Shown here: piece after piece, positions 3,681 through 16,363 of the stretch
Layout of the letters: each line of letters begins with the position of its first letter
How positions within the stretch are numbered: position 1 is the first letter of the stretch
NCBI GenBank assembly: GCA_902384455.1
Contig: CABMCB010000076.1
Coordinates: forward strand, 1-39,599
DNA: 39,599 bases
Direction: 5' to 3'
From: an uncultured archaeon
GTDB taxonomy: Archaea; Altiarchaeota; Altiarchaeia; IMC4; SCGC-AAA252-I15
Program-made: the position numbers and the translations under genes
Notes under the pieces: model-generated
What the model was told of the DNA's origin: nothing
What the model saw: only the letters and a program-made list of their open reading frames with translations
The model's database searches: none

Positions 3681-4811
3681 TTAAGAACCACCACCCCCAC
3701 CAAGCAAACGACGAATATCCCCAACATCAAAACGAGGAATAAGACGACGAGTACGGCCGTGAACACCTTCGACGTATAATGCGTCTATGATGCGCAGATG
3801 CTCAAGCTTCTTCACCAGCTCATTGTACTTTTTGATTCCAACACCTGTTTTCCTCCGGTACACCTCGTAAACGCGCCCTGAAACAGGATCCTTAAGCTCC
3901 GCTATAGTCAAAAGCAGAGCCTTATCCTCATCCGACAACGCAGAAAGAACAGAAGAAAGCTCCGCAGCAGAATCCTGCCGCGAAGCCGAAGCATAAACAT
4001 GCTTTTCTGTCACGGCCTTAACCGCCTCCTTTTCGGCTTCATAAACCGCCTGCCTCATAAGTTGGATTCCGAAACGCAAATCTCCCCGCTTCACCGTCTC
4101 AGCGACGACTGCGTCCAAAGCGCCTTCGGAAAATACGTCCGCATACAAACCGTACCTCACCCTGTCTTTGAGTATGTCCCTAAACTCGTCTTCTCCGTAA
4201 GGCGCAAAATGAATGTGCAAGGGATTAAACACGCTCTTGGTCTTGTCGTCCAAGCGGGACAAAGCGCCCGCATCAATCATAATGGCGACTACCCCCACCT
4301 GAGAGTAACCGTAAGTGTCAGACGCCTTAAGCAAATCCACCAAAACCTTGTCTGCATGAGAATTCAACAACAACGCATCAAACTCGTCCAGAAACACGGC
4401 CAAACTCCGTCCGTCTTTAGAAAGCTTCTTGAAAACCTTCTCTTTGACCGATTCCAGAGGTTTTCCGGTGTCCGGCAAATAAACGTCGAAAAGCGCTTCA
4501 TGTATCTTGGCGAAAACAGCGTAAGGTGTAGTGGCGTCTTCGCAGTTGACGTAAACCGGAAGAAGCTTGTGGCTTGTCTCCTTGACTTCTTTGAGCATGA
4601 ACTTCACTGCCGTAGTCTTACCTGTCGCGGGAGGGCCGTAAAGCAGAGTGTTCATCGGCGGCTGACTGCGGAGGCCCGGTTTAATGGATGCTGCCAGTGC
4701 CTTAAGTTGTCCGTCACGGTGTCTGAAGTCTGTTGGAACGTAAGTTGGGGTGAAAACAGACTCGTCTTTGAACAAAGTCTGGTCATCCAGAAGGAGGCTG
4801 CCGCGTTTCAC
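3681..4811 (-). CDS. cdc6: Orc1/Cdc6 replication initiation protein (probable GTG start at 4811)
   Basis: F...YVP....HRD, Walker A GPPATGKT, Walker B FLDEFD, F.PY, GDLR.GI, C-terminal wHTH ending GRTR. Confidence 0.93.
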   Translation of the reverse strand: MKRGSLLLDDQTLFKDESVFTPTYVPTDFRHRDGQLKALAASIKPGLRSQPPMNTLLYGPPATGKTTAVKFMLKEVKETSHKLLPVYVNCEDATTPYAVFAKIHEALFDVYLPDTGKPLESVKEKVFKKLSKDGRSLAVFLDEFDALLLNSHADKVLVDLLKASDTYGYSQVGVVAIMIDAGALSRLDDKTKSVFNPLHIHFAPYGEDEFRDILKDRVRYGLYADVFSEGALDAVVAETVKRGDLRFGIQLMRQAVYEAEKEAVKAVTEKHVYASASRQDSAAELSSVLSALSDEDKALLLTIAELKDPVSGRVYEVYRRKTGVGIKKYNELVKKLEHLRIIDALYVEGVHGRTRRLIPRFDVGDIRRLLGGGGGS

Positions 4812-4854
4812 GTTGATTTCTGTTAGCTTTTTGTTAGGTTGGAAGAAAAAGAGT

Positions 4855-5064
4855 CGGGTATGAGCTTTGGGGGAGGTTTGCACCGCACATGCAACCATCT
4901 CAGCTTGTGGGAACTGAGATTTTGGCATACTTGGCGGCTTTAACGCAGGCAGTCCGCCGCCGCAGGCACCCATGTCGCCCTTTTTGGGTATATTATTTTG
5001 CGGTTTAGGCGGACGTCTGCTTTTTCCCCCGTTGCTCATACCCGGATCCAAGCGGATTATGAGC
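4855..5064. ncRNA. Unidentified structured element (candidate ncRNA or cis-regulatory leader) in the cdc6-ribB divergent intergenic region
   Basis: 11-bp closing stem 4855-4865/5034-5044, GGGGGA/TCCCCC 4869-4874/5025-5030, arm 4945-4958/5008-5020, hairpin 4897-4903/4914-4920; third TATGAGC at 5058-5064. Confidence 0.45.
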
Positions 5065-5236
5065 CCAACCACCCCCTTTACTTGGTTAAGGTTTTCGTTT
5101 GGGCTATAAAAAGGGTTTGCCTAGAGCGCAAGGGAAAAGTGAGAAAAAACCGCAAAAATCTACTCAAAAACAAGTAATAAATCAAAATTGAGTATTTATA
5201 AGGTGTCTTAACCTAAGCCTAACGCCACAAAAAACA

Positions 5237-6410: not shown

Positions 6411-6836
6411 ATGGCATACAAAAACCCAACCCTCGGCATAGTCGCCAGCGAATTCAACTACGACATAACAAACGCAATGGTCGAGTTGGCCAAAGAGCAC
6501 GCCGCATTCCTCGGCTGCCCAGTAACCCACATAGTAAAAGTGCCCGGAGCATACGACATACCGCTCGCAGTCAAAAAACTAATGGAACAAGACGACGTAG
6601 ACGCAGTCGTGACTCTGGGAGCAGTCATAGAAGGCCAAACTGAGCACGACGAAATAGTAATCCAGCATGCCAGCCGAAAGATAATCGACCTATCACTGCA
6701 ATACAACAAACCCGCAGCACTCGGAATAACAGGGCCCGGAATGACACGCCTACAAGCACACAGCAGAATAGACTACGCCAAACGCGCAGTAGAAGCCGCA
6801 GTCAAAACACACAAGGCGCTAAACGAAATACGCTGA
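6411..6836 (+). CDS. ribH: 6,7-dimethyl-8-ribityllumazine synthase
   Basis: GIVASEFN.DIT, VPGAYDIP, LGAVIEG.T.H, LGITGPGM. Confidence 0.96.
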   Translation: MAYKNPTLGIVASEFNYDITNAMVELAKEHAAFLGCPVTHIVKVPGAYDIPLAVKKLMEQDDVDAVVTLGAVIEGQTEHDEIVIQHASRKIIDLSLQYNKPAALGITGPGMTRLQAHSRIDYAKRAVEAAVKTHKALNEIR

Positions 6837-6840
6837 ATTT

Positions 6841-6890
6841 ATAATAGTATGAATACTAATATACTACAGTAATATACATATTTTTATACT
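6841..6890 (+). promoter_or_regulatory. Promoter/operator copy A (palindrome TAGTAT-GA-ATACTA at 6845-6858; TATA box TTTTTATA at 6881-6888)
   Basis: 40/50 ungapped identity to the reverse complement of 7821-7870; TATA box ends 24 nt before ATG 6913. Confidence 0.7.
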
Positions 6891-6912
6891 GGGCTTCCGT
6901 TGTCATTTATTG

Positions 6913-7098
6913 ATGGCAACGGTCTCATTGGACATAAAAGACCTAAAGAAACCAAAAATCACTCTTACGCGAACTTTTGTCAAACAAATGGGCTTGTATG
7001 GGGGTGAAATTGTTTTAATACGAAAATATCGGCGTGAAATATACGTGTCAATTATCACAAAAAAAGGGGGTGACTTGAATGATCATCGGGGCTGGTAA
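6913..7098 (+). CDS. Small AbrB/MazE/SpoVT-like swapped-hairpin protein
   Basis: KITLTRTFVKQMGLYGGEIVLIRKYRREIYVSI fits the AbrB pattern (ITIP....LG...G+.V.+.....I.+); TATA box upstream (TTG 6910 is an alternative start). Confidence 0.55.
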   Translation: MATVSLDIKDLKKPKITLTRTFVKQMGLYGGEIVLIRKYRREIYVSIITKKGGDLNDHRGW

Positions 7099-7237
7099 AG
7101 TAAAACTTAAGAAACGGGGCGGGGAGATTTGGATGCCTGAACTGGTTTTTTACCAGATTAAGGCATTCAATCCGGACGTAATTAAAGTGAACGTAATAAG
7201 CGACGCAAGAATGGTCTTCAACCCACCGTCCTTATGA
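7079..7237 (+). CDS. Second small AbrB-like protein (52 aa, not in the ORF track): MIIGAGKVKLKKRGGEIWMPELVFYQIKAFNPDVIKVNVISDARMVFNPPSL
   Basis: SD GGGGGTGA at 7066-7073, ATG 7079, TGA 7235-7237; KV...GG.I.+P...+...D.+.V.+.....+.P pattern. Confidence 0.5.
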   Translation: MIIGAGKVKLKKRGGEIWMPELVFYQIKAFNPDVIKVNVISDARMVFNPPSL

Positions 7238-7547
7238 GTGCGCAGTCGGGTGTAACTTCAATGAATCGGTGTGCTGTGCCTTCGCTGTAGGCGTTGCATT
7301 GGTTTTCTGGCAGGTTGTCGACTGGCTGCCTTGGGTTGTGGGCGACGTCGCAAACCCAGTCTGGATATTCTTCAATGGGGTCGAGTATGCAGGGGCCGTT
7401 TGTCAGGTTGGCGCTTGATGTGAGGATGTGTTTGCAGTAGTTTATGCATGTTTTGGTGGCGTTATTCTGCTCGTTTTCTGTCTGTTGTCCTATGCATCCG
7501 GCGGCTGCGACGCCTATAAGTACGGCGAGAAATAGGTGTTTCTTCAT
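7218..7547 (-). CDS. Small cysteine-rich lipoprotein
   Basis: Signal peptide with lipobox (MKKHLFLAVLIGVAAAG-C); six further Cys; GPC, WVCDVAHNPR. Confidence 0.8.
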   Translation of the reverse strand: MKKHLFLAVLIGVAAAGCIGQQTENEQNNATKTCINYCKHILTSSANLTNGPCILDPIEEYPDWVCDVAHNPRQPVDNLPENQCNAYSEGTAHRFIEVTPDCALIRTVG

Positions 7548-7554
7548 CTAAAAT

Positions 7555-7575
7555 TATCTTGGGTCAGCCAAGATA
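7555..7575. promoter_or_regulatory. Perfect 8-bp inverted repeat TATCTTGG-N5-CCAAGATA at the lipoprotein promoter (putative operator)
   Basis: Minus strand reads AAAAATGGTTTATATCTTGGCTGACCCAAGATAATTTTAG-ATG. Confidence 0.5.
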
Positions 7576-7674
7576 TAAACCATTTTTCTTATCTGCAAGT
7601 GTGCAGTCAGAGAAAAAAGTATCTCAAATACGGTCGTTTCTATCCAGTGATGGACGTTGCTGGACAGTTTTATC

Positions 7675-7800
7675 CTATCTAGGCTGTTTCCACTCGTCTG
7701 GAAGAATGTTGTAAGGGTCGTAATTCTTCTCTCTTTCCTGCCTTTGTTGACCCCTCTTCTCCACCTCGACGATGTAGTTATGCACGAACGGCCCTCTCAT
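7675..7800 (-). CDS. 41-aa small peptide MRGPFVHNYIVEVEKRGQQRQEREKNYDPYNILPDEWKQPR (not in the ORF track)
   Basis: ATG 7800, TAG 7675-7677; GAGGGG 8 nt upstream; directly downstream of promoter copy B. Confidence 0.55.
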   Translation of the reverse strand: MRGPFVHNYIVEVEKRGQQRQEREKNYDPYNILPDEWKQPR

Positions 7801-7820
7801 GTTATATACCCCTCAACCAG

Positions 7821-7870
7821 AGTATAAAAATATACATACTACTGTATCCAATGAGTATCCATACTATAAT
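7821..7870 (-). promoter_or_regulatory. Promoter/operator copy B (AGTAT-N2-ATACT at 7854-7865; TTTTTATA on the minus strand at 7823-7830)
   Basis: Inverted 80%-identical copy of 6841-6890; lies between the small peptide gene and the divergent regulator. Confidence 0.7.
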
Positions 7871-7927
7871 ATTTTATATAGTTTAATTTCGTAGACTATA
7901 ATACGTATAATATTCTCTCAAAAACCC

Positions 7928-8899
7928 ATGGAGCTCGCAGAACTTGATAGCATAGTTAAGTGGCTGAACATCACTCAGCAGCAGCACGACGTACTCTCCT
8001 GCATCTATGCTCTTGAAGAACAAAAAAGCGAAATCAACCCAAAAAACATTCTTGACGCCTATAAAAAAACTTATAGTAAAAGCATCCAACCGAGCAATCT
8101 TTTTCCATTACTGAAGACTTTGGTGGAACGGGACATTATTATCAAAAAAGAGAAAGCCAACTACGCCCTTAACTCTGAAGGCATTAGAAACCAGCTTCTG
8201 ACCAGCCAACGAATCATGCAAAAAGAACTTGAAGATCAAACCTATGTGATAGACCACATTGACGAATACTTCAAATCAATAGCAAACCACGAAAAACAGC
8301 CAATTCTGAAATACTACTCCTATACAGATGGCTTTGAAAAATTGGCCGAAATACTCAAAAGCTGCAAAAAACACTATTGCACTTCAACGTTCCCGTACAT
8401 AGCGTGGATGCCGACATTAGCCTACCAGCGAGGAGTGGAAGCCTACAACAACGTCCTGTGGGAACGGTGCCTCACGAAGAAAGTGCTCGAGGTGACTTAC
8501 TTGACCCCCTTAGACATGGACCTCCTCTACAGCCGGGCGATGAAAGTGTTTGGTGTCGATAAACTGGCTTACGCAGAGTGCGAGTCCATGTTAAACAAGG
8601 TCGAGGCTCTTTTGGAACGAAATGAAAACCTTGACATAAAATACCTCGAAAACCCAGTAGGTTTCTTCGTAATGATACCCGAAAGGAATAGTCCAACTGA
8701 TGTTTTCATATTCCTTAGGGACGAGAACCGTGAAGTTATAGGTTATATTTACATCAACTCTGAGGACATAGCTTACCAAGCCAAGCAGCAGTTCCTAAGT
8801 GAAAGTAAGCATGCAGTTTCGCTCAGGGATCCAAAAGGTAAAGTAGTCCTAAAGAAAATCCGGAAACAGTTCGCCGAGAAATACGCCCACAGTAAGTGA
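7928..8899 (+). CDS. Winged-helix transcriptional regulator, TrmB-like architecture (wHTH + coiled coil + effector domain)
   Basis: N-terminal wHTH (SNLFPLLKTLVERDIIIK...YAL), helical linker, C-terminal alpha/beta domain ending YINSEDIA...F. Confidence 0.7.
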   Translation: MELAELDSIVKWLNITQQQHDVLSCIYALEEQKSEINPKNILDAYKKTYSKSIQPSNLFPLLKTLVERDIIIKKEKANYALNSEGIRNQLLTSQRIMQKELEDQTYVIDHIDEYFKSIANHEKQPILKYYSYTDGFEKLAEILKSCKKHYCTSTFPYIAWMPTLAYQRGVEAYNNVLWERCLTKKVLEVTYLTPLDMDLLYSRAMKVFGVDKLAYAECESMLNKVEALLERNENLDIKYLENPVGFFVMIPERNSPTDVFIFLRDENREVIGYIYINSEDIAYQAKQQFLSESKHAVSLRDPKGKVVLKKIRKQFAEKYAHSK

Positions 8900-9009
8900 T
8901 TGCTTGTATAATAACGGGGAATTGTGCGGCTCCAACCGGCATTAAATCGTTTTTTAACCCAAACGTGTTAAGATAAGGAAAGTTGGGTCTACATAAGTAG
9001 GGGTCACAG

Positions 9010-9447
9010 ATGGCAGAAAAAAAAGAGAAGCAGAAAATTTATAAAGACCTTATTGTTCATCCTGAACGGCGGAAAACTTCAGAACTAGTCCGCCACACCG
9101 ATGATAGTCCCGGAACAAGGTATGTAGCCCTAGACAAAAAAATTCTGTCTGAATCGACAGTCTATCAGGCCGTCAGGATAATCAAGGATTTGAAGGTTAA
9201 GCCACCCGAATACGTAAAGTCTCACTCTCATACGGTCGACAGCACTTATATTTTCTTGGGCGATAACGAAGACTTAAGCGGGCTTAAAGCCGAGGTTGTT
9301 CTTGGAGACGAGACCTACGTCATAGATTCTCCTGCATCCATATTCGTTCCTAAGCGTTTGAATCATTCTGTTAAGCTAATAGGTGGTTCTGGCCTATTCA
9401 TAAACACCGTACTAAACGGCGATTATAATGAAGCCACGTACTGGTGA
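9010..9447 (+). CDS. Cupin-fold protein
   Basis: HSHTVDSTYIFLG and SPASIFVPKRLNH cupin motifs. Confidence 0.75.
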   Translation: MAEKKEKQKIYKDLIVHPERRKTSELVRHTDDSPGTRYVALDKKILSESTVYQAVRIIKDLKVKPPEYVKSHSHTVDSTYIFLGDNEDLSGLKAEVVLGDETYVIDSPASIFVPKRLNHSVKLIGGSGLFINTVLNGDYNEATYW

Positions 9448-10369
9448 TGTCTTAAGTTGGGATAATGTCACTGAACCGTTGCAGCCAACTTATTCTCTAA
9501 GTCAGGTTTATGATAAACTCACTCAAAGAAATTTGGGTGTCTATAACAAGATCGAGCAAAAAAAGATTCGTGCGGCGTCAGTGGCAATCATCGGGGTGGG
9601 TTGCGACGGAGGAATGGACGCTTATATATTGGCGCGTATGGGTGTGGGCAAACTTGTTCTTGTCGACTTTGACGTAAACGAACTTTCTAATTTGAATCGC
9701 CAGCCCATGTCGACTTTCTCCACATTGGGTTTGCCTAAAGTGCTTGCTGCAAAGGCCATTCTCCACGACATGAACCCTCTTGTTAAGGTTGAGGCTGTAA
9801 ACAAAGCGGTAGAGGAGGATAATGCCGAGAAAATTGTGAAAAAAGCGGATGTAGTCCTCCAGTGTACTGACAGTATGGTTGCGCGTATTGTTACGGTTAG
9901 GGCGTGCATTAAGGCTAAAAAGCCTTGTATAGTGATGACTGGTCAGCCTCCTTTCAGGAGTTTCGTTTCAACCATACTTTCTCCCGGGCCTTCATACGAG
10001 GAGCTTTTCAATATCGGTTTTGTTAAGGGTAAGTTGTTCAAAGGTAATCCTAAGCTAGTCGGGAAGGTGAGGGGCCTTAAGCGTGAGCGTGCGTTGCATG
10101 CGAATAAGTTGCGTGCCTCTGAGGGTTGGTTGCAGAAGTATCTTATGGCTGAAGCTGGTTGGGGTATTACCCCTGAGAGGGCTTATTTAACTTCTGTTTA
10201 TCAGGTTCATGAGGCGTTGGCTTTGATTACTGGTCGTTCGCCTAAGGCTGTTGCTCCGAGGGCTTTTGTGTCTGATTTGAATGGTCTTTCGGAGTTTGGG
10301 CGGCCTGATGTTATTGCTGCTTTGTTGGATCCGCCTAATGGCAGGTGGTGGGATTACCGTATGTTCTGA
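9428..10369 (+). CDS. ThiF/MoeB/E1-like adenylyltransferase lacking Zn-binding CxxC motifs
   Basis: GVGCDG nucleotide-binding loop, VDFD..ELSNLNRQ, G.PKV..A, NP.V.V, DVVLQCTD. Confidence 0.88.
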   Translation: MKPRTGDVLSWDNVTEPLQPTYSLSQVYDKLTQRNLGVYNKIEQKKIRAASVAIIGVGCDGGMDAYILARMGVGKLVLVDFDVNELSNLNRQPMSTFSTLGLPKVLAAKAILHDMNPLVKVEAVNKAVEEDNAEKIVKKADVVLQCTDSMVARIVTVRACIKAKKPCIVMTGQPPFRSFVSTILSPGPSYEELFNIGFVKGKLFKGNPKLVGKVRGLKRERALHANKLRASEGWLQKYLMAEAGWGITPERAYLTSVYQVHEALALITGRSPKAVAPRAFVSDLNGLSEFGRPDVIAALLDPPNGRWWDYRMF

Positions 10370-10372
10370 AAG

Positions 10373-11311
10373 ATGGTTGAGCTTCTTGACAGCACTTTGC
10401 GGGAGGGGTGTCAGGCGCCGGGCGTTAGTTTTTCTGTTGAGCAGCGTCTTGAGGTTGCTTTGTTGTTGGATGAGTTTGGCGTGGATTTTATTGATGCTGG
10501 TCATCCGGTTGTTAGTAAGGACGTCCTTGAGGGCGTTAAGTTGGTTGCTGGGCAGGGTCTTAATGCGCATGTTATTTCTCATGCGCGCGCCTGCAGGAAG
10601 GATGTTGATGCTGTGATTGATTCTGGTTCGGAGTGGGTGGGCATCTTTTTGGGCGTCAACAAGTTTAGTCTGCATGAGAAGGTTCATTGCAGCAAGCGCG
10701 AGGCTTTTGACATGGTGGTCGACAGTGTTTCTTATGCTAAGGCTCATGGTCTGAAGGTGCGTTATACGCCTGAGGATGCTACTAGGACTGAGTGGGCTGA
10801 TTTGGTTGAAATTAGTTTGAGGGCGGTTGAGGCTGGGGCAGATAGGATTTCGATTGCTGATACTGTGGGTGTTTCTACGCCGGGTAGGATGGCTGCTTTG
10901 GTGTCTTATTTGAAGGGTCGTCTGCCGTGTCCGCTTAATGTTCATTGCCATAATGATTTGGGGTTGGCTGTGGCGAATTCTCTTGCGGCTTATGAGGCTG
11001 GTGTTACTCTTATTGACGCGTCTGTTAACGGGTTGGGTGAGCGGGCTGGTATTACTCCTCTTCATGAGATTACGGTGGCTTTGTCTTATTTGTATGGTGT
11101 TAAGAAGTGGAAGCTTGATATGTTGCCGGGTATTTCGCAGGTTGTGGCGAAGTATTCGGGGATTCCTGTGCATCCTGAGACGCCTCTTGTGGGCAAGTAT
11201 GCTTTCACGCATACTGCTGATTTGCATAAGAAGGCTGTTAAGAAGAATCCTGAGTCTTATGAGCCTTTTAGTCCTGATATGGTGGGGCGGAAGCGTTCGT
11301 TTTCTCCGTAG
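10373..11311 (+). CDS. Homocitrate synthase-like DRE-TIM metallolyase (LeuA family), C-terminally short
   Basis: DSTLREG.Q, EDATR, IADTVG, HCHNDLG.A.AN, GLGERAG, AFTH...H..AV..NP.SYE. Confidence 0.85.
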   Translation: MVELLDSTLREGCQAPGVSFSVEQRLEVALLLDEFGVDFIDAGHPVVSKDVLEGVKLVAGQGLNAHVISHARACRKDVDAVIDSGSEWVGIFLGVNKFSLHEKVHCSKREAFDMVVDSVSYAKAHGLKVRYTPEDATRTEWADLVEISLRAVEAGADRISIADTVGVSTPGRMAALVSYLKGRLPCPLNVHCHNDLGLAVANSLAAYEAGVTLIDASVNGLGERAGITPLHEITVALSYLYGVKKWKLDMLPGISQVVAKYSGIPVHPETPLVGKYAFTHTADLHKKAVKKNPESYEPFSPDMVGRKRSFSP

Positions 11312-11375
11312 GGGGTGGGTTTAGCGCGGCTTGTGGTTGCGGGTTTTTTAACTTCCCTGGTGTAAGAGAATAAGG

Positions 11376-12077
11376 GTGTTTAAGGTGCCTTCATACGTTA
11401 TCGCATCGACGACGTTGAGCGTTGACGGCAGGGTTGCTTTGCATGACAAGCCGATTGAGCTCACTAATCGCATAAGCGAGTATCATATTCAACGGTTGCG
11501 AGGTAGCGTTGACGCAATTATTGTGGACGTGTCTGCCTTCCTGAAGGGAGATCCGTTGTTTCCAGCTAAGGAATATCATCATAAGCATCCTGCGATAGTC
11601 ATTGTGGATAAGAACGCGGATCTTCCGCCGAATGCCGCCATCCTTAAGCAGGCAGACCATCATGTGATTCTTGTTGTCGGAAGGAACGCTTACAACACCC
11701 GCATTCAGCGTTTGCCCAAAAGCGACAGATTCGAAGTCCTCCAGAACAGCGGCACTAATGAAATAAACTTAAAGAGTCTTCTTGTGGACTTGTCGCTTAA
11801 GGGCATGCGGCGTGTGCTGGTGGAGTCGCAGGGCAATTTGATGAGGCGGTTTTTTGAGGACGGTTTTGTAAGCGAGTTGTACGTTACTTTCGCCCCTACG
11901 ATTGCCGGGGCAGGCGTTGATTTCCTCCATGAGACTCTTCTTGAGCCGGTGGATTTGAAGCTTGAGGGCATTATCCAGTTTGGGGACCATGTGGTGCTTC
12001 ACTACAAGGTTAAGTCCGATGAAATAGTGGTGGAGGGTGCGTCTGAGAAGCCGGCGGAAGGCGTTAAAGGTTCATAA
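11376..12077 (+). CDS. RibD C-terminal / archaeal pyrimidinone nucleotide reductase (ArfC)-like protein, divergent
   Basis: SVDGRVA, RLRG.VDAIIV, DP.F, LVE...L...F...G.V.EL.V.FAP.I.G; near the rib genes. Confidence 0.78.
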   Translation: MFKVPSYVIASTTLSVDGRVALHDKPIELTNRISEYHIQRLRGSVDAIIVDVSAFLKGDPLFPAKEYHHKHPAIVIVDKNADLPPNAAILKQADHHVILVVGRNAYNTRIQRLPKSDRFEVLQNSGTNEINLKSLLVDLSLKGMRRVLVESQGNLMRRFFEDGFVSELYVTFAPTIAGAGVDFLHETLLEPVDLKLEGIIQFGDHVVLHYKVKSDEIVVEGASEKPAEGVKGS

Positions 12078-12108
12078 GCTTTGGCTTCCTAGTTTAGTAA
12101 GGAGTTTC

Positions 12109-15042
12109 ATGCACAGTAATTTTGCGTTAGTTAGTGTTCTGTTTCTCCTGGCCTTCGCAGCCTTCTATATAGATCTTGGTGTTCCGTCGGGGGCTGTTGA
12201 GCGTTCATCGTTGTCCGTTGGTAGCCCCACTGCTTTCGCCATCTCCAAGCAGAAATCTGACGCTAATAAACAAATTACTCCAAGCGCTTTGGTTAAGGCT
12301 AGTAAGTCGTTGTCTGTTCGTATAGAGGCGGCTTCGGCTGGGGATACTATCCCCGCGATAGTCTTCCTTAAGGAGCCGAAAGGTGTGGGTCCGGTAGGTA
12401 AAGGGGGGCGTGTTTCTTCTGCGGCCGTTTCTGCAAGGGATTCGGCGGTTCGGGATGAGCAGGCTCGGGTTTCTGCGTCGTTGTCTGGTAAAACTCGGGT
12501 GACTCGGAGTTTGTCTTACATGAATGCGTTGGTTGGTGAGTTTGATGTTTCGGATCTTAAGATGCTTTTGAACAGCCCGTATGTTGATTTCGGGTACTTT
12601 GACGCTCCTGTTCGCATTATTGATCCGGTCACGCAAGATGCTCAGACTTTTCTTGCCGTAAGCGTTCCTTCAATAGGCGCGACTGCTGTGTGGGGCAATT
12701 ATAGCGTTTCAGGTAAGAACGTGACGGTCGCAGTGATTGATACCGGAATTGATTATACTCACCCGGATTTGGGCGGATGTTTGGGGCCTTCTTGTAAAGT
12801 TCGGGGTGGTTATGATTTCTATAATAATGACGCTGATCCTATGGACGATAATGGTCATGGTACTCATGTTGCGGGTACTGTGGCTGCTAATGGTACTGTG
12901 CGGGGTGTGGCTCCTGGTGCGAGTTTGTATGCTGTTAAGGTCTGTAGTAGTTCGGGTGATTGTTCTAGTTCTATGATTCTTGCGGGTGTTGATTGGGCTG
13001 TTGGTCATCAGGCTGATGTGATTAGCATGAGTCTTGGCGGGTACTATAACGTTAATGTGAATGATGGGTTGGATGGTTTGGAGGTTCATGCGCTTTCTAT
13101 TGCGGCTAAATACGGTATAGTGTCGGCTATTGCGGCGGGTAATGGCGGTCCCGGTACGAATACTATTGCGTGTCCTTCTTGTAATCCTGATGTTCTTACG
13201 GTGGGTGCTGTGAATGATGGTGGGACTGTTAGTCAGTCTGATGATACGGTGGCGTCTTTTAGCGGGAGGGGGCCTAGTGCGTTTGGGCGTCTTGATCCTG
13301 ATGTTTCTGCTCCTGGTGTGGGTATTGTGAGTACGTGGGTTGGTGGTGGGTATATGTCTTCTGATGGGACGAGTATGGCGACTCCTCATGTTGCTGGTGT
13401 TGCGGCTTTGTTGCTTGAGGCGGAGCCGGGTTTGTCTCCTGCTGGGGTTAGGGCTCGTTTGATGAGTACGGCGTTTCCTGTGGTGGGTAAGGTGTTTGAG
13501 GTTGGTGCTGGTGAGATTAACGTGTATCGTGCGCTTTCTTCGCCTCTTGATGTGTCTGTTGGGGGTGGCGATAGGTGGGAGACTGTTGTGATGCCGGGTT
13601 TTGTGCGCGTTGTCAATTTGACGTTGACTAATCGCGGCAATAGTACTCTCTCTGTTTGGTTTAGTGCTGAGAATCTTTCGGATTTGGAAAATAGTTATTT
13701 AGTGTCTTCTAGTTGGTTTACTCTTCCGGGCAACATCAGTTTAGCGAGCGGAGGGAGTGTGGTTCTGCCGGTTTCTTTGTGGGTGCCGTCTAATCAGCCT
13801 GCTTTCACTTACGGCGGCGTAATCAAGGTTCATTATGGCGGTGATTCGCTTCAGGTTCCTGTGGTGGTGACTGTGCCTTTCATTGGTTATGGTCTTATTA
13901 ACGGCACAGTCAACGACTATCAGTATTCTTACCATGAGGGTGATTGGGTGTATTACCTTCTGGTTAATCCCGCTTCGTCGTCTATCACTGTCGTTTTGAA
14001 TTGGAGCGGCTCAAGCGACCTAGATTTGTATTTGGTTTCGGACGACGGCGATATAGTGGGGACAAGCGACAGCGCAAGTAACGTTCAGGAAAGCGTCACT
14101 GTGTCGCCTCTGGCATACAGCCGGTATTGGGCGTTAGTCCGTTATTATACGGGTTCTGGAACGGTTCCTTATAATCTTACGGTTTCGTATGGCGGAAATC
14201 TTTCTGTTACTCCTCCAGTGTCCCAGATTAATGTGACAGGCAACCAAACAGCCAACATCACTTACGCCATCTACAACAACGGTCCTGCGGCAAACGCTGC
14301 GGCTTCACTCCGCCTGCTTAACAAAACCCAAGGCGTTACCCACGACATAAACCGGAGTTTAAACCCTCTTTTGTCGGACTACTGCGCGTTCCATTACCTG
14401 CGTTCATCGGAAGGGTTCAATCTCAACAACTCGGTCTTAGCTTCCGCGAACATCACTTGGAGTCACACTAACGACCTTGATTTGGTGCTTGGTTACATCG
14501 TGGGCTCCACCAACTACCGGTCGAGGATATCAGGCGACAGCAACAACACGTTATCAGGAAACTACTTTGAGGCTATTGACGCCGCAAACATAAGGGGCAT
14601 GGCGAGAACATATGACGACGTGTTCTTTGCGGTCTGCAATTTCGGCGGCGGAAGCTTCACCGGCGTGTACAACCTGTCAATATGGGTCTACGACGAGGCG
14701 CCGTGGCCCGCAGCTTCGGTTGCTCCGTCTTCGGTGACGTTTCCTGCGGGTGGAACCGCTAATGTGACATTGACGGTGAATGCGCAGGGGCTTTTGGAGA
14801 ACGCCACTTACGACGCCTACTTCACAGCATTAAGTCCGCAGGGACTAACTCTCGTAGAGTCTCCTCTGCTGGTCAACGTGCTCCCCCAGGAAGTTACTAC
14901 GACCACAACCACTACGACCACAACGACAACTACGACCACAACCACTACGACTACAACAACGACGTTGCCGGCCTCAATTCATGATTATTTCGGTCGTTTG
15001 TTTTCCGGTTGGAACCTGATTAGCGTTCCGCTTAACGTTTAA
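12109..15042 (+). CDS. Secreted subtilisin-like (S8) serine protease with prodomain, PPC-like/beta-sandwich domains and poly-Thr tail
   Basis: Catalytic triad VIDTG, HGTHVAG, GTSMATPHV; N-terminal hydrophobic signal; SD AAGGAG before ATG 12109. Confidence 0.93.
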   Translation: MHSNFALVSVLFLLAFAAFYIDLGVPSGAVERSSLSVGSPTAFAISKQKSDANKQITPSALVKASKSLSVRIEAASAGDTIPAIVFLKEPKGVGPVGKGGRVSSAAVSARDSAVRDEQARVSASLSGKTRVTRSLSYMNALVGEFDVSDLKMLLNSPYVDFGYFDAPVRIIDPVTQDAQTFLAVSVPSIGATAVWGNYSVSGKNVTVAVIDTGIDYTHPDLGGCLGPSCKVRGGYDFYNNDADPMDDNGHGTHVAGTVAANGTVRGVAPGASLYAVKVCSSSGDCSSSMILAGVDWAVGHQADVISMSLGGYYNVNVNDGLDGLEVHALSIAAKYGIVSAIAAGNGGPGTNTIACPSCNPDVLTVGAVNDGGTVSQSDDTVASFSGRGPSAFGRLDPDVSAPGVGIVSTWVGGGYMSSDGTSMATPHVAGVAALLLEAEPGLSPAGVRARLMSTAFPVVGKVFEVGAGEINVYRALSSPLDVSVGGGDRWETVVMPGFVRVVNLTLTNRGNSTLSVWFSAENLSDLENSYLVSSSWFTLPGNISLASGGSVVLPVSLWVPSNQPAFTYGGVIKVHYGGDSLQVPVVVTVPFIGYGLINGTVNDYQYSYHEGDWVYYLLVNPASSSITVVLNWSGSSDLDLYLVSDDGDIVGTSDSASNVQESVTVSPLAYSRYWALVRYYTGSGTVPYNLTVSYGGNLSVTPPVSQINVTGNQTANITYAIYNNGPAANAAASLRLLNKTQGVTHDINRSLNPLLSDYCAFHYLRSSEGFNLNNSVLASANITWSHTNDLDLVLGYIVGSTNYRSRISGDSNNTLSGNYFEAIDAANIRGMARTYDDVFFAVCNFGGGSFTGVYNLSIWVYDEAPWPAASVAPSSVTFPAGGTANVTLTVNAQGLLENATYDAYFTALSPQGLTLVESPLLVNVLPQEVTTTTTTTTTTTTTTTTTTTTTTTLPASIHDYFGRLFSGWNLISVPLNV
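14896..14964 (+). repeat. Poly-Thr (23 codons) built from degenerate ACTACGACCACAACC units
   Basis: Direct reading: 23 consecutive ACN codons. Confidence 0.9.
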
Positions 15043-15079: not shown

Positions 15080-16363
15080 ATGGTCCGTTTGCAGCTGGCT
15101 CTCGACTTCGTGGACTTTGATCGCGCTTTGCGTGTAGCTGAAGCTGTGGCACCTTTTGTTGATGTTATCGAGGCGGGCACGCCTTTAATCAAAAGCGAGG
15201 GTTTGGGTGCTGTTAGGCTGTTGAGGAAGAGGTTTCCTGGCCATCAGATTCTTGCTGATATGAAGGTGTTGGATGCGGGGCGCATTGAGGTTGAGTCTGC
15301 GGCTAAGGCGGGCGCTCATTTGGTGGGCGTTGCCGGGGCGGCGTCTGATGCTACTGTTAGGGAGTGCGTGGAGGCGGCTAAGAACGTCGGTTGTCTTGTT
15401 GTGGCAGACTTGATTGCTGTGGGTAATCCTGTTAAGAGGGCTGGGGAGCTTGAGGCGTTGGGAGTTGTTGGTGTGGCGGTTCATTTGGCTATTGATCAGC
15501 ATATGCAGGCTAAGAATCCTCTTTCTACTTTGAGGTTGGTCCGTAAGACAGTGAAGATTCATGTTTACGTTGCCGGCGGTATTACGCCTAAGTCGGCGGC
15601 TTTGGCTGCTAAAGCTGGAGCGGACGTGGTCGTTGTGGGCGGCTACATCACTAAAGCAGAGAATCCCGGTAAGGCGGCGAAGGCGGTTAAAGCCGCGATT
15701 AAGACGGGTAAGGCGCCTGCTGAAAAACTGTTTGAGCGGACTATCGACGTGAAGAAGCTGCTCAAAAAAGTGTCTTCAGCCAACCTTTCAGACGCAATTC
15801 ACAGGAAGGGGGCTCTTTCCCACAAAATAAAGCCGCTTAAGGAGGGTTGTAGGGCGGTGGGGCCTGCTTACACAGTCAAGACTGTGCCTGGAGACTGGGC
15901 CAAGCCCGTTGAAGCAATAGATTCCGCCCCTAAGGGGAGTGTCATAGTTGTGGATGCGTTGGGGAGGCCTCCTGCGGTTTGGGGTGAGTTGGCGACTCGT
16001 AGTGCTTTGTTGAGGGGTGTTTCTGGTGTTGTGGTTTTTGGTGCTGTTCGTGATGTGGGTGATATTCGTATGTTGGGGTTGCCTGTTTTTGCGTCTCATA
16101 TGTCTCCTCATGCTGGTGAGCCTAAGGGTTTGGGTGAGATTAATGTGCCCGTGAGCATTGGCGGTGTGGAGGTGAGTCCTGGGGATTGGGTTTTGGCTGA
16201 TGATGATGGGGTCGTGGTGTTGCCTTCTGGGAGGGCGGTGGAGTACGCTAATCGCGCGGTGGATGTTTTGGAGAGGGAAAATAGGATTCGCGCTGAGATT
16301 AAGTCTACTAGGAAGGGGCTTTCTGAGGTTACTCATTTGTTGAAGTGGGAGAAGGCGAAGTAA
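15080..16363 (+). CDS. hxlA: 3-hexulose-6-phosphate synthase fused to an RraA/MenG-like domain
   Basis: LQLALD, IEAGTPLIKSEG, ADMKVLDAG.IE; C-terminal SANLSDA, GDWAKPVEAID, WGELA, VRDV, GD...ADDDGVV. Confidence 0.92.
   Translation: MVRLQLALDFVDFDRALRVAEAVAPFVDVIEAGTPLIKSEGLGAVRLLRKRFPGHQILADMKVLDAGRIEVESAAKAGAHLVGVAGAASDATVRECVEAAKNVGCLVVADLIAVGNPVKRAGELEALGVVGVAVHLAIDQHMQAKNPLSTLRLVRKTVKIHVYVAGGITPKSAALAAKAGADVVVVGGYITKAENPGKAAKAVKAAIKTGKAPAEKLFERTIDVKKLLKKVSSANLSDAIHRKGALSHKIKPLKEGCRAVGPAYTVKTVPGDWAKPVEAIDSAPKGSVIVVDALGRPPAVWGELATRSALLRGVSGVVVFGAVRDVGDIRMLGLPVFASHMSPHAGEPKGLGEINVPVSIGGVEVSPGDWVLADDDGVVVLPSGRAVEYANRAVDVLERENRIRAEIKSTRKGLSEVTHLLKWEKAK

Follow-up and report, generated by a model that had tools for sequence, protein, structure and literature searches.

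A candidate small-acid-activating cassette of a cupin, a zinc-less ThiF-like enzyme and a shortened homocitrate synthase in an uncultured archaeon

What do a small cupin, a ThiF-like adenylyltransferase and a homocitrate-synthase-like enzyme of the DRE-TIM family do together, and why do their genes stand inside a riboflavin operon? The question is raised by contig CABMCB010000076.1 (C76) of an uncultured archaeon of the Altiarchaeota (assembly GCA_902384455.1; 2.41 Mb, 103 contigs, 91.9% complete, 50.5% GC), which was analysed over its whole length of 39,599 nucleotides and is called the window below. Four intact plus-strand open reading frames (ORFs) at 7928–11311 encode these three proteins and, ahead of them, a putative regulator (Table 1). 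A first-pass annotation, made by reading the sequence alone, had proposed the same four genes, flanked by ribH and a RibD_C-like gene, as a candidate biosynthetic system, and our ORF and Pfam scans recovered both the gene set with its coordinates and the flanking genes.

We propose that the cassette is a horizontally acquired, self-contained operon that makes a small organic acid and activates it with ATP, a reading to which we give about an even chance. The individual proteins belong to known superfamilies and the logic of the proposed pathway has precedent; we found no paper on the combination itself.

Occurrence of the cassette in archaea and metagenomes

Scans anchored on the ThiF-like gene yielded thirteen loci of the same ThiF subfamily: the window, four in species-representative genomes and eight in metagenomes. 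A fifth species-representative match (L019) is an ordinary ThiF and was not counted. A cupin gene adjoins the subfamily ThiF in all ten loci with enough flanking sequence, the other three (L020, L021 and L027) running off their contigs, and a DRE-TIM gene adjoins it in seven of the thirteen (the window, L015, L017, L020, L023, L024 and L025). The genes occur in three orders, with spacings between enzyme genes of -20 to +15 nucleotides. In L015, whose protein also has an NCBI record, and in L023 the DRE-TIM and cupin are fused into one ORF. Genes beyond the cassette are housekeeping genes that differ among loci. Because the genes recur in three orders and as fusions in unrelated contigs, their clustering goes beyond chance, and judged by this gene order the trio is a recurring, co-inherited cassette and not a chance neighbourhood. 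The first-pass annotation had treated the trio as one dedicated unit. Co-occurrence agrees with this for the ThiF and cupin, which form a constant core, whereas the DRE-TIM is frequent but dispensable. Two outcomes had been named as speaking against a dedicated system, namely that the three genes never co-occur elsewhere, or that they group with ordinary TcdA or UbaA and with lysine-pathway homocitrate synthases; both were examined and neither was found.

No conserved small ORF was detected in or beside ten of the cassettes, where 145 candidates gave one marginal match of 13 residues. In L017 (6862–8232) the cupin and DRE-TIM share one reading frame and are separated by a single TGA codon, which may reflect a recent split or read-through; in L015 and L023 the order is reversed relative to L017 and the two genes are fused. 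In L018 (101–3300), from a member of the Bacteroidetes, a 626-residue protein has the subfamily ThiF as its C-terminal half. Neither the first ~330 residues of this protein nor the preceding 436-residue protein has a match in Pfam, PADLOC or PDB sequences, or, for the N-terminal 325 residues, in the Atlas; these parts may replace the DRE-TIM as supplier of the substrate. A cupin-anchored search of three phyla added few loci, among them a lone cupin (L060). Four Bacteroidota genomes carry distant cupins (~33% identity), three of them 4–6 kb from a gene for a 386-residue DRE-TIM; these are too distant and not independent, and were not used.

Insertion into the riboflavin operon

The distribution of the cassette is patchy. 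It is missing from all 60 relatives, which are all other available genomes of this small phylum, and was found in 2 of 215 and 5 of 401 genomes of two other phyla. Among the 60 relatives there is no cupin gene (E ≤ 1e-8) and no close homologue of the ThiF-like gene; ten have any ThiF match, the best with 36% identity and over the Rossmann core only. In three relatives of the same family (G007, G010 and G008) the gene order is ribC-ribH-RibD_C, with ribB also upstream in G008, and ribH and RibD_C lie 33, 666 and 56 nucleotides apart, respectively, as against 4.5 kb in the window. From this synteny the block is best described as a horizontally acquired insertion of ~4.5 kb into the riboflavin operon, and for this genome a clean event of this kind is documented. 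The riboflavin context is therefore incidental, the relatives having ribH and RibD_C without the block. An AT-richer 5' part of the block had also been reported, and the GC content is indeed 0.36–0.46 over 7600–9600 versus 0.48–0.51 in the flanks and 0.505 in the genome, which is compatible with recent acquisition.

Copies on bacterial plasmids

A tblastn search of 72,556 plasmids with the window cupin matched 43 records, 42 from the Bacillus cereus group and one from Pseudomonas aeruginosa, and in all 43 the DRE-TIM and cupin are one ORF. Among the 20 matches listed, 19 fall in an annotated gene; 17 of these genes are named '2-isopropylmalate synthase', and the other two 'HMGL-like family protein' and 'hypothetical protein', respectively.

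The three Bacillus records that were read share an operon with different flanks, consisting of two ThiF genes, a DUF441 gene, an alpha/beta hydrolase gene (labelled 'dienelactone hydrolase family' by one depositor) and the DRE-TIM–cupin gene. The match of ThiF1 to the window ThiF has 35% identity over residues 24–311 and includes the PPxR, GWxITPxRA and WDYK motifs; for ThiF2 the identity is 34% over residues 18–270, and for the DRE-TIM part, compared with the window DRE-TIM, it is 42%. With the ThiF subfamily motifs, a truncated DRE-TIM and the cupin signature, this operon is a true homologue of the window cassette, but it differs in having two ThiF paralogues, a DRE-TIM that is always fused to the cupin, an extra hydrolase and DUF441, and no TrmB gene. 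A literature search found no paper on it.

The Pseudomonas gene encodes a 455-residue DRE-TIM–cupin protein whose cupin is 41% identical to that of the window (E 1e-25), with identical signature residues. It lies in the order nonribosomal peptide synthetase (NRPS), hypothetical protein, alpha/beta hydrolase, phytanoyl-CoA dioxygenase, DRE-TIM–cupin, S-adenosylmethionine (SAM) methyltransferase and AMP-binding protein, which is the order described for PA1215–PA1221 in the available part of PMC13351317. By gene order the protein is presumably PA1217 of the orphan PA1211–1222 cluster, which, unlike the window, has ANL/NRPS adenylation and no ThiF. PA1217, a 'probable 2-isopropylmalate synthase', used acetyl-CoA and gave no 2-isopropylmalate from alpha-ketoisovalerate, according to excerpts of a preprint (bioRxiv 10.1101/577908). 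The available portions of these two texts do not mention a cupin. In the plasmid copy (L072, 8613–14390) the Mu-like phage genes Mor, GemA and Gam directly follow a 112-residue 'AMP-binding protein' fragment, which suggests that the adenylation gene was interrupted by a prophage.

The cupin

The AlphaFold2 (AF2) model of the window cupin, built with ten orthologues, has a predicted local distance difference test score (pLDDT) of 94.2. Foldseek returned 184 PDB matches at E ≤ 1e-3, and those listed are all cupins, including MarH-type 2-oxo-acid epimerase, oxalate decarboxylase and phosphomannose/phosphoglucose isomerases. No Pfam cupin model reaches its cut-off, and the only match is a sub-threshold one to PF01050 (mannose-6-phosphate-isomerase type, E 0.008). 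The three-histidine metal site (H72, H74 and H119) is invariant, with Ser78 in place of the usual motif-1 glutamate. From archaea to Bacteroidetes, Bacillus and Pseudomonas, E25, H29, R37, D42, Y52, R56, S78 and Y139 are invariant as well, giving the signature E..H..R..Y..R..HxH...S...H...Y.

A profile search of 1.84 billion representative proteins defined a cupin family of 363 clusters at E ≤ 1e-3, or 55 at E ≤ 1e-30, whose source names are just 'hypothetical protein' or '2-isopropylmalate synthase'. Pfam scans of 30 longer members identified 19 that consist of truncated HMGL-like/HCS_D2 domains followed by a C-terminal cupin, two of these with an added methyltransferase domain. The other 11 include an ANL AMP-binding protein with a C-terminal cupin (P0197), a cupin–methyltransferase and a tandem cupin (540 cluster members); the methyltransferase fusions of the family are P0081, P0108 and P0206. 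The first-pass annotation had asked whether the cupin is fused to LeuA-like proteins elsewhere, and these 19 proteins, together with L015, L023 and the 43 plasmid matches, answer that it is. ThiF, ANL adenylases and methyltransferases thus alternate as partners of the cupin, which points to a carboxylate as the shared handle.

The ThiF-like enzyme

Among 5.8 billion proteins the window ThiF has ~38 relatives of ~290 residues at 40–67% identity; after them comes a sharp drop to 30% identity, with scores going from 152 to 111 bits. All 19 subfamily sequences compared have R91, Q92, K104 and D148. Three of them (R91, K104 and D148) align with MoeB R73, K86 and D130, which we take to be the arginine finger, lysine and aspartate of the ATP-binding core. 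The subfamily is further marked by the motifs GVGCDGG, MTGQPPFR and GWGITPERAY and by an aromatic C-terminal residue in 36 of 36 members, with a W-[D/N]-[Y/F]-x-x-[F/Y] ending in 34 of them. The window protein has cysteines only at 59, 146, 160 and 167 and no CxxC motif; two CxxC pairs occur in none of the 36 members and a single CxxC in one, so that the earlier description of a Zn-less ThiF holds. No NCBIfam equivalog cut-off is reached (108 bits versus a cut-off of 275 for TIGR02356, 108 versus 159 for NF006395, 81 versus 450 for UbaA and 53 versus 304 for TcdA). By these motifs and scores the window protein is classed as a member of a distinct Zn-less clade. It is the sole PF00899 protein of the genome.

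The AF2 model of the ThiF has a pLDDT of 88.9, falling below 50 over residues 1–18. In Foldseek searches PaaA, AclA, ThiF, MoeB, Uba5, Uba4 and MccB match about equally well (query template-modelling score, TMq, 0.55–0.65), and we found no relevant paper on the top structural neighbour AclA (PDB 9EGB). The model shows no N-terminal peptide clamp or RRE domain; only ~25 poorly conserved, low-confidence residues precede the Rossmann fold. Complex prediction with the cupin (alignments A2 and A3) scored 0.00 in two runs without controls, which counts neither way.

The genes had been described as tightly coupled, with a 3-nucleotide gap and a 20-nucleotide overlap. The gap between ThiF and DRE-TIM is exactly 3 nucleotides, but cupin and ThiF overlap only if ThiF starts at the ATG at 9428. 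With an in-frame TTG at 9479 as the start, a 31-nucleotide gap would follow the cupin and the protein would have 296 residues. The overlap is uncertain because this alternative gives the usual length of the subfamily (288–297 residues) and because residues 1–18 are modelled with low confidence.

The homocitrate-synthase-like enzyme

The best PDB match of the DRE-TIM is homocitrate synthase (HCS) from Sulfolobus acidocaldarius (6KTQ, E 3.3e-82), in an alignment that ends at residue 346 of 412, and the Pfam match to HCS_D2 covers only positions 1–38 of 82. The nearest relatives are four proteins of ~312 residues at 60–66% identity, followed by hundreds of canonical archaeal HCS of ~373 residues at 54–58%, some of which have a RAM domain (PF01037). 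We aligned 13 archaeal cassette-type enzymes with 18 canonical HCS and five bacterial fusions. The cassette-type enzymes keep 72 of the 100 positions that are at least 90% conserved in canonical HCS, including the segments LREG, H68, VRYTPED (VRYTxED), HCHND (HxH) and HTADLH (HxAxLH), which we take to be metal- and 2-oxoglutarate-binding residues by the numbering and roles of Thermus HCS. The only consistent substitution is that of Gly by Asp, Lys or Asn at window position 283, which is Asp in the window protein. All short enzymes end at ...VGRKRxF, whereas canonical HCS run ~60 residues further, and in six of the seven cassette DRE-TIMs one common position inside subdomain II marks either the end of the protein or the junction with the cupin; the seventh (L025) is longer and different, with 409 residues and 36% identity. 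The score against TIGR02146 (LysS_fung_arch) is 381.4 bits, below the cut-off of 413.55. The window protein is accordingly annotated here as a predicted shortened HCS without the second half of subdomain II, in line with its first description as a minimal homocitrate-synthase-like enzyme.

A tree was built from 43 hand-picked sequences (26 of 120 listed homologues, nine fusions, six locus-derived genes, the window enzyme and the genome's own LeuA-like gene), with a midpoint root and several long branches. The window enzyme falls in a clade of five proteins of ~312 residues (support 98/98) beside the canonical HCS groups.

Potential partner genes

A search of the genome (92% complete) for sulfur carriers of the ThiS/MoaD type (PF02597) gave no match at E ≤ 0.1; the missing part leaves a small doubt, and a control search was positive in 12 of 14 reference genomes. 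This is consistent with a ThiF that works without a carrier. LysX (TIGR02144), LysW (TIGR01206) and nitrogenase (PF00148) were not found in the genome, which holds one aconitase-family gene, one Iso_dh-family gene, one gene for a 519-residue LeuA-like protein and a DapA-family gene. Because LysX, LysW and nitrogenase were not found, the aconitase and Iso_dh genes are single and DapA is present, the DRE-TIM lies outside any recognisable lysine, coenzyme or nif pathway, which settles against the lysine pathway a question raised by the first-pass annotation. Its statement that the window has no genes for sulfur carriers, molybdenum cofactor, thiamine, lysine or leucine was reproduced in Pfam scans of 20 further window ORFs. 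Nitroreductase and acyltransferase domains are absent from the four window proteins and the scanned neighbours, and Rfam gave no riboswitch or other family at 6700–11500 of the window (E ≤ 1) or, at gathering scores, in six related loci.

The regulator

In eight of the 12 other loci a divergent gene for a TrmB protein of ~245 residues lies upstream of the cassette. Those of L015, L016 and L017 match PF01978 (E ~1e-16), and those of five further loci are homologous to them by tblastn, two only as short end fragments. The 323-residue protein of the window had been called TrmB-like, but it does not match PF01978, and hhalign against six cassette-linked TrmB proteins (alignment A4) gives a probability of 0.2%. 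The label is therefore unsupported, the protein showing no detectable kinship with the TrmB proteins found elsewhere, although a dedicated regulator is taken to accompany the cassette constantly. The protein has no Pfam (E ≤ 0.01), NCBIfam or PADLOC match and a weak DtxR-family match to ScaR/SloR (E 0.0065–0.0073, residues ~16–145). Only two homologues were found among the 5.8 billion proteins, both at 54% identity. One of them and the closest ThiF homologue (P0002) have the same source and equal contig size, and we infer that they share one contig of 2,724 nucleotides.

Proposed function and alternatives

DRE-TIM synthases give beta-hydroxy acids. The conserved residues suggest that the window enzyme would condense acetyl-CoA with 2-oxoglutarate or a similar 2-oxo-dicarboxylate to a homocitrate-like beta-hydroxy tricarboxylate. 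The cupin, which in the fusions sits in place of the missing C-terminal synthase subdomain, would use its three-histidine metal centre to bind either the 2-oxo acid consumed by the synthase or the hydroxy acid that the synthase makes, and would isomerise, epimerise or otherwise process it. Following the chemistry of its family, the Zn-less ThiF would then adenylate one carboxylate without a sulfur carrier or ubiquitin-like protein, and the acyl-adenylate could be captured by a nearby nucleophile, which would close a ring such as a lactone or couple the acid to a second molecule as an amide or ester. The operon would be regulated by the 323-residue protein in the window and by the divergent TrmB gene product in most other archaeal copies. 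Where the synthase is absent, the ThiF–cupin pair presumably acts on an acid from elsewhere.

This proposal is supported by the conservation of the ThiF adenylation residues and of the HCS-like catalytic residues, and by the other cupin partners, which act on carboxylates: the ANL adenylase of P0197, the methyltransferases, and the SAM methyltransferase and AMP-binding gene of Pseudomonas. As far as the available part of a recent review goes, ThiF-like enzymes nucleotidylate carboxylates, the carrier-independent ones usually drive capture by a nearby nucleophile, and OxzB is a ThiF-like enzyme with a small molecule as its substrate (PMC12596934). For cystargolide, the excerpted text describes a route to a beta-lactone and amides that begins with a homologue of isopropylmalate synthase and continues with a carboxyl methyltransferase and with adenylating enzymes (PMC10776993).

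Several observations weigh against the acid-activating proposal. The activity, substrate and product of every cassette member are predicted from sequence. No DRE-TIM gene is present in the available flanks of L016, L018 and L022 or in the ~800 nucleotides after the L026 cupin, and PF00682 is absent altogether from the L016 genome, the completeness of which is not given; the cassette can thus do without the synthase. The cupin-associated DRE-TIMs do not form one resolved clade in the tree and those outside the window clade form separate lineages, so the association may have arisen or been lost repeatedly. Because of these separate lineages, the midpoint root and the long branches, a single origin is not established. 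The fold match of the cupin is generic (template-modelling (TM) score 0.5–0.7, identity ≤ 24%), and none of the 30 longer cupin-family proteins scanned is a ThiF–cupin fusion. The peptide-modifying PaaA, AclA and MccB have the same TM-score as ThiF and MoeB, and structure therefore cannot separate small-molecule from peptide substrates. Finally, the PA1217 result is compatible with a substrate other than alpha-ketoisovalerate but is no proof of which.

The main alternative is that the cassette modifies a peptide, protein or tRNA. In the manner of MccB, PaaA and TcdA, the ThiF would adenylate a carboxylate of a macromolecule; the cupin would be a tailoring oxygenase or isomerase, and the DRE-TIM would be an accessory supplier or unrelated. 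We consider this unlikely, though well worth weighing. The pantocin cluster pairs PaaA with a protein resembling Fe/2-oxoglutarate oxygenases, and PaaA and AclA are among the top Foldseek matches of the window ThiF. The ThiF–cupin core also persists without the DRE-TIM. According to the part of the ThiF review available, the substrates of almost all ThiF-like enzymes characterised as carrier-independent are peptides, proteins or tRNA (PMC12596934). However, the window ThiF has neither the peptide clamp nor the RRE domain, its TcdA score is 53 bits against a cut-off of 304, the ten cassettes hold no conserved small ORF, and the space between genes would not accommodate a precursor gene, although a precursor peptide may be encoded elsewhere. 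Transfer to a peptide or tRNA, as first suggested for this locus, thus finds neither a precursor ORF nor a peptide-binding domain, and this alternative offers no reason why the cupin is repeatedly fused to an intact homocitrate-synthase-like enzyme.

The next alternative is purely regulatory. The cupin would be a ligand-sensing module that replaces the RAM domain or C-terminal part of HCS, in a regulated homocitrate/2-oxoadipate metabolism whose later steps are carried out by the genome's single LeuCD/LeuB-type set. The site of the cupin fusions is exactly where canonical enzymes have the C-terminal helical subdomain and sometimes the RAM domain, the DRE-TIM is 54–58% identical to canonical HCS and lies beside them in the tree, and the genome has one aconitase-family, one Iso_dh-family and one 519-residue LeuA-like gene. 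Yet the cupin keeps three invariant histidines together with E25, H29, R37, Y52, R56 and Y139, as expected of a catalytic centre, it stays beside ThiF where the DRE-TIM is missing, and its fusion partners also include an ANL adenylase and methyltransferases. With LysX and LysW not found, a DapA-family gene present and the cassette a recent insertion missing from the 60 relatives, we regard a regulatory cupin as improbable.

We see very little room for the idea that these are chance-neighbour housekeeping genes, that is, a sulfur-carrier E1 of the MoeB/ThiF/UbaA type beside an HCS of the lysine or nif type. The ThiF-like gene is the only one of its family in the genome, its best matches are ThiF/MoeB models and structures, and hesA and nifV are neighbours in some nif clusters. 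The idea is largely refuted by the lack of CxxC pairs, of ThiS/MoaD at E ≤ 0.1 and of equivalog scores anywhere near their cut-offs, by the lack of a close homologue in the 60 relatives, the majority of them without any ThiF-family match, by the failure to find nitrogenase, LysX and LysW, and by synteny and fusions that are conserved across domains.

An anti-phage or conflict system built on an E1-like enzyme (as in CBASS Cap2, Bil or 6A-MBL) would account for the sporadic, mobile distribution with its plasmids and AT-rich island, and PADLOC E1–E2 models match the ThiF (best E 2.6e-15), but it is hardly credible, since the matches cover only the generic Rossmann core (residues ~45–169) with none for the regulator, cupin or DRE-TIM, no E2, JAB, ubiquitin-like or effector gene is present, and we know of no precedent for a catalytically intact homocitrate-synthase-like enzyme in E1-based anti-phage systems.

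Relation to known systems

If the acid-activating proposal holds, a close parallel is OxzB of the tyrazolone oxazolone pathway, a carrier-free ThiF-like enzyme that works on a small-molecule carboxylate in a compact operon with the enzyme that makes the substrate (PMC12596934, available part). A ThiF–nitroreductase cluster in the Atlas is a structural neighbour of the window ThiF (TM 0.75). OxzB differs in its fusion to a nitroreductase and in its substrate, an N-acyl amino acid made by an acyltransferase, whereas the window has no nitroreductase, has cupin and DRE-TIM partners, and belongs to a separate ThiF subfamily with its own C-terminal half. In the cystargolide and belactosin pathways, a DRE-TIM Claisen condensation yields an alkylmalate-type beta-hydroxy acid whose carboxylates are methylated or adenylated to give a lactone and amides (CysA, CysG, CysC/CysF; excerpts of PMC10776993). 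Methyltransferase and ANL-adenylase partners are also seen with the cupin family of the window, as in the cystargolide logic. However, these actinomycete clusters use ANL and ATP-grasp enzymes instead of ThiF and a full-length synthase of the isopropylmalate synthase type, and the word cupin does not occur in the available text of PMC10776993.

Canonical LysS (6KTQ, 3A9I) and NifV share the fold of the window DRE-TIM, which has 54–58% identity to canonical HCS. In contrast to them it has ~60 fewer C-terminal residues, Asp in place of Gly283 and no lysine or nitrogenase partners, and it always occurs in a ThiF–cupin cassette. MoeB, ThiF and UbaA share the Rossmann fold and adenylation residues and give the highest sequence scores, but the window ThiF lacks the Zn-binding CxxC pairs and a carrier and has a distinct C-terminal half (MTGQPPFR, GWGITPERAY and the aromatic end). 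A literature search on ThiF with cupin, homocitrate synthase or isopropylmalate synthase found no such cassette, in agreement with the earlier remark that no characterised pathway has this trio, and the words cupin, homocitrate and archaea are absent from the available text of the 2025 ThiF review (PMC12596934).

The same review, in the part available, counts only one validated small-molecule case among ThiF/E1-like enzymes (PMC12596934). A second, phylogenetically broad clade with other partners would, if real, widen the known chemistry of the E1 superfamily. More speculatively, the cassette may be the archaeal form of a widespread, unrecognised module of Archaea, Bacillota, Pseudomonadota, Bacteroidota and Actinomycetota, in which an HCS-derived enzyme and a three-histidine cupin would make a new hydroxy-polycarboxylate, and a new ThiF clade, the first E1-like enzymes to act on a plain organic acid, would activate it to a strained lactone or conjugate. 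The same cupin–synthase chemistry would then operate in the quorum-sensing-regulated PA1211–1222 cluster of P. aeruginosa and in the Bacillus plasmid operon. We offer this wider picture tentatively and think it somewhat unlikely as a whole. The cupin is a previously unremarked C-terminal domain of many '2-isopropylmalate synthase' proteins, including the putative PA1217; the present annotation is misleading, and recognition of the domain gives a concrete hypothesis for orphan clusters. The archaeal hosts are uncultured, but the chemistry is directly testable because homologous operons reside on plasmids of cultured Bacillus strains.

Other features of the window

The coordinates of the cassette and its surroundings are collected in Table 1.

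Table 1. Positions of the cassette genes and neighbouring features in the window
Feature	Position	Strand	Basis or remark
ribH	6411–6836		Pfam scan
Inserted island between ribH and RibD_C	6837–11375		synteny in relatives, GC drop
AT-rich segment inside 51-nucleotide inverted repeat	6840–7871		arms 6840–6890 and 7821–7871, 80% complementary
62-residue ORF within AT-rich segment	6910–7098	+	no Pfam match
109-residue lipoprotein-like ORF within AT-rich segment	7218–7547	-	no Pfam match
323-residue ORF, putative winged-helix regulator, family unassigned	7928–8899	+	ORF list
145-residue monocupin, three-histidine metal site	9010–9447	+	ORF and AF2 model
313-residue ThiF/E1-like adenylyltransferase, Zn-less subfamily (alternative start TTG at 9479)	9428–10369	+	PF00899, E 9.9e-41
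312-residue homocitrate-synthase-like DRE-TIM	10373–11311	+	PF00682 (HMGL-like), E 2.6e-70
Terminator-like hairpin and T-run	11325–11351	+	7-pair stem at 11325–11341, then GGTTTTTTAA
RibD_C reductase gene	11376–12077	+	Pfam scan

The terminator-like hairpin stands directly 3' of the DRE-TIM stop codon and is a consensus match only; the scanned region has 11 such sites, compared with 5.4 ± 2.6 in shuffled sequences. Flanking direct repeats were considered as attachment (att) sites of the island and rejected, only short repeats at chance level being present.

An Orc1/Cdc6 gene with Cdc6 lid and AAA domains (3681–5072, minus strand) lies ~1.8 kb from the AT-rich kilobase with its 51-nucleotide inverted repeat, near a flip in strand composition. 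The plus strand is A/C-rich over 1–7 kb and G/T-rich over ~9.5–20 kb. A replication origin near this gene and the AT-rich kilobase is conceivable; the inverted repeat could equally mark a small mobile insertion that carries the 109-residue ORF. An origin was also considered as what flips the strand composition at the island, and rejected since the skew is patchy across the genome and varies gene by gene, and for the same reason skew is not used as evidence here. In 2-kb windows over the genome the AT skew has a standard deviation of 0.205 and the GC skew one of 0.115 (r -0.58). In 365 ORFs of at least 400 residues the coding-strand AT3 skew has a standard deviation of 0.41 and a correlation of -0.82 with GC3 skew, the codons ranging from A/C-ending to T/G-ending. 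Homology-verified genes on the same strand differ in skew (ribB, ribC and ribH versus the DRE-TIM and S8 protease genes), and some of the long ORFs may be antisense shadows.

The RibD_C reductase scores 95 bits against a cut-off of 186 for the archaeal reductase equivalog, yet it is syntenic with ribH in the relatives; contig C56 carries another RibD_C-like gene, which is more distantly related. Downstream, 12037–15042 (plus strand) encodes a 1001-residue subtilase (PF00082, E 3.4e-63) with a run of ~24 threonines near its C-terminus; this protease is probably secreted or anchored at the surface and has a linker that is probably glycosylated. It is followed at 15080–16363 (plus strand) by a gene with an unusual two-domain architecture, in which an OMP-decarboxylase/HUMPS-family domain is fused to an RraA-like aldolase domain.

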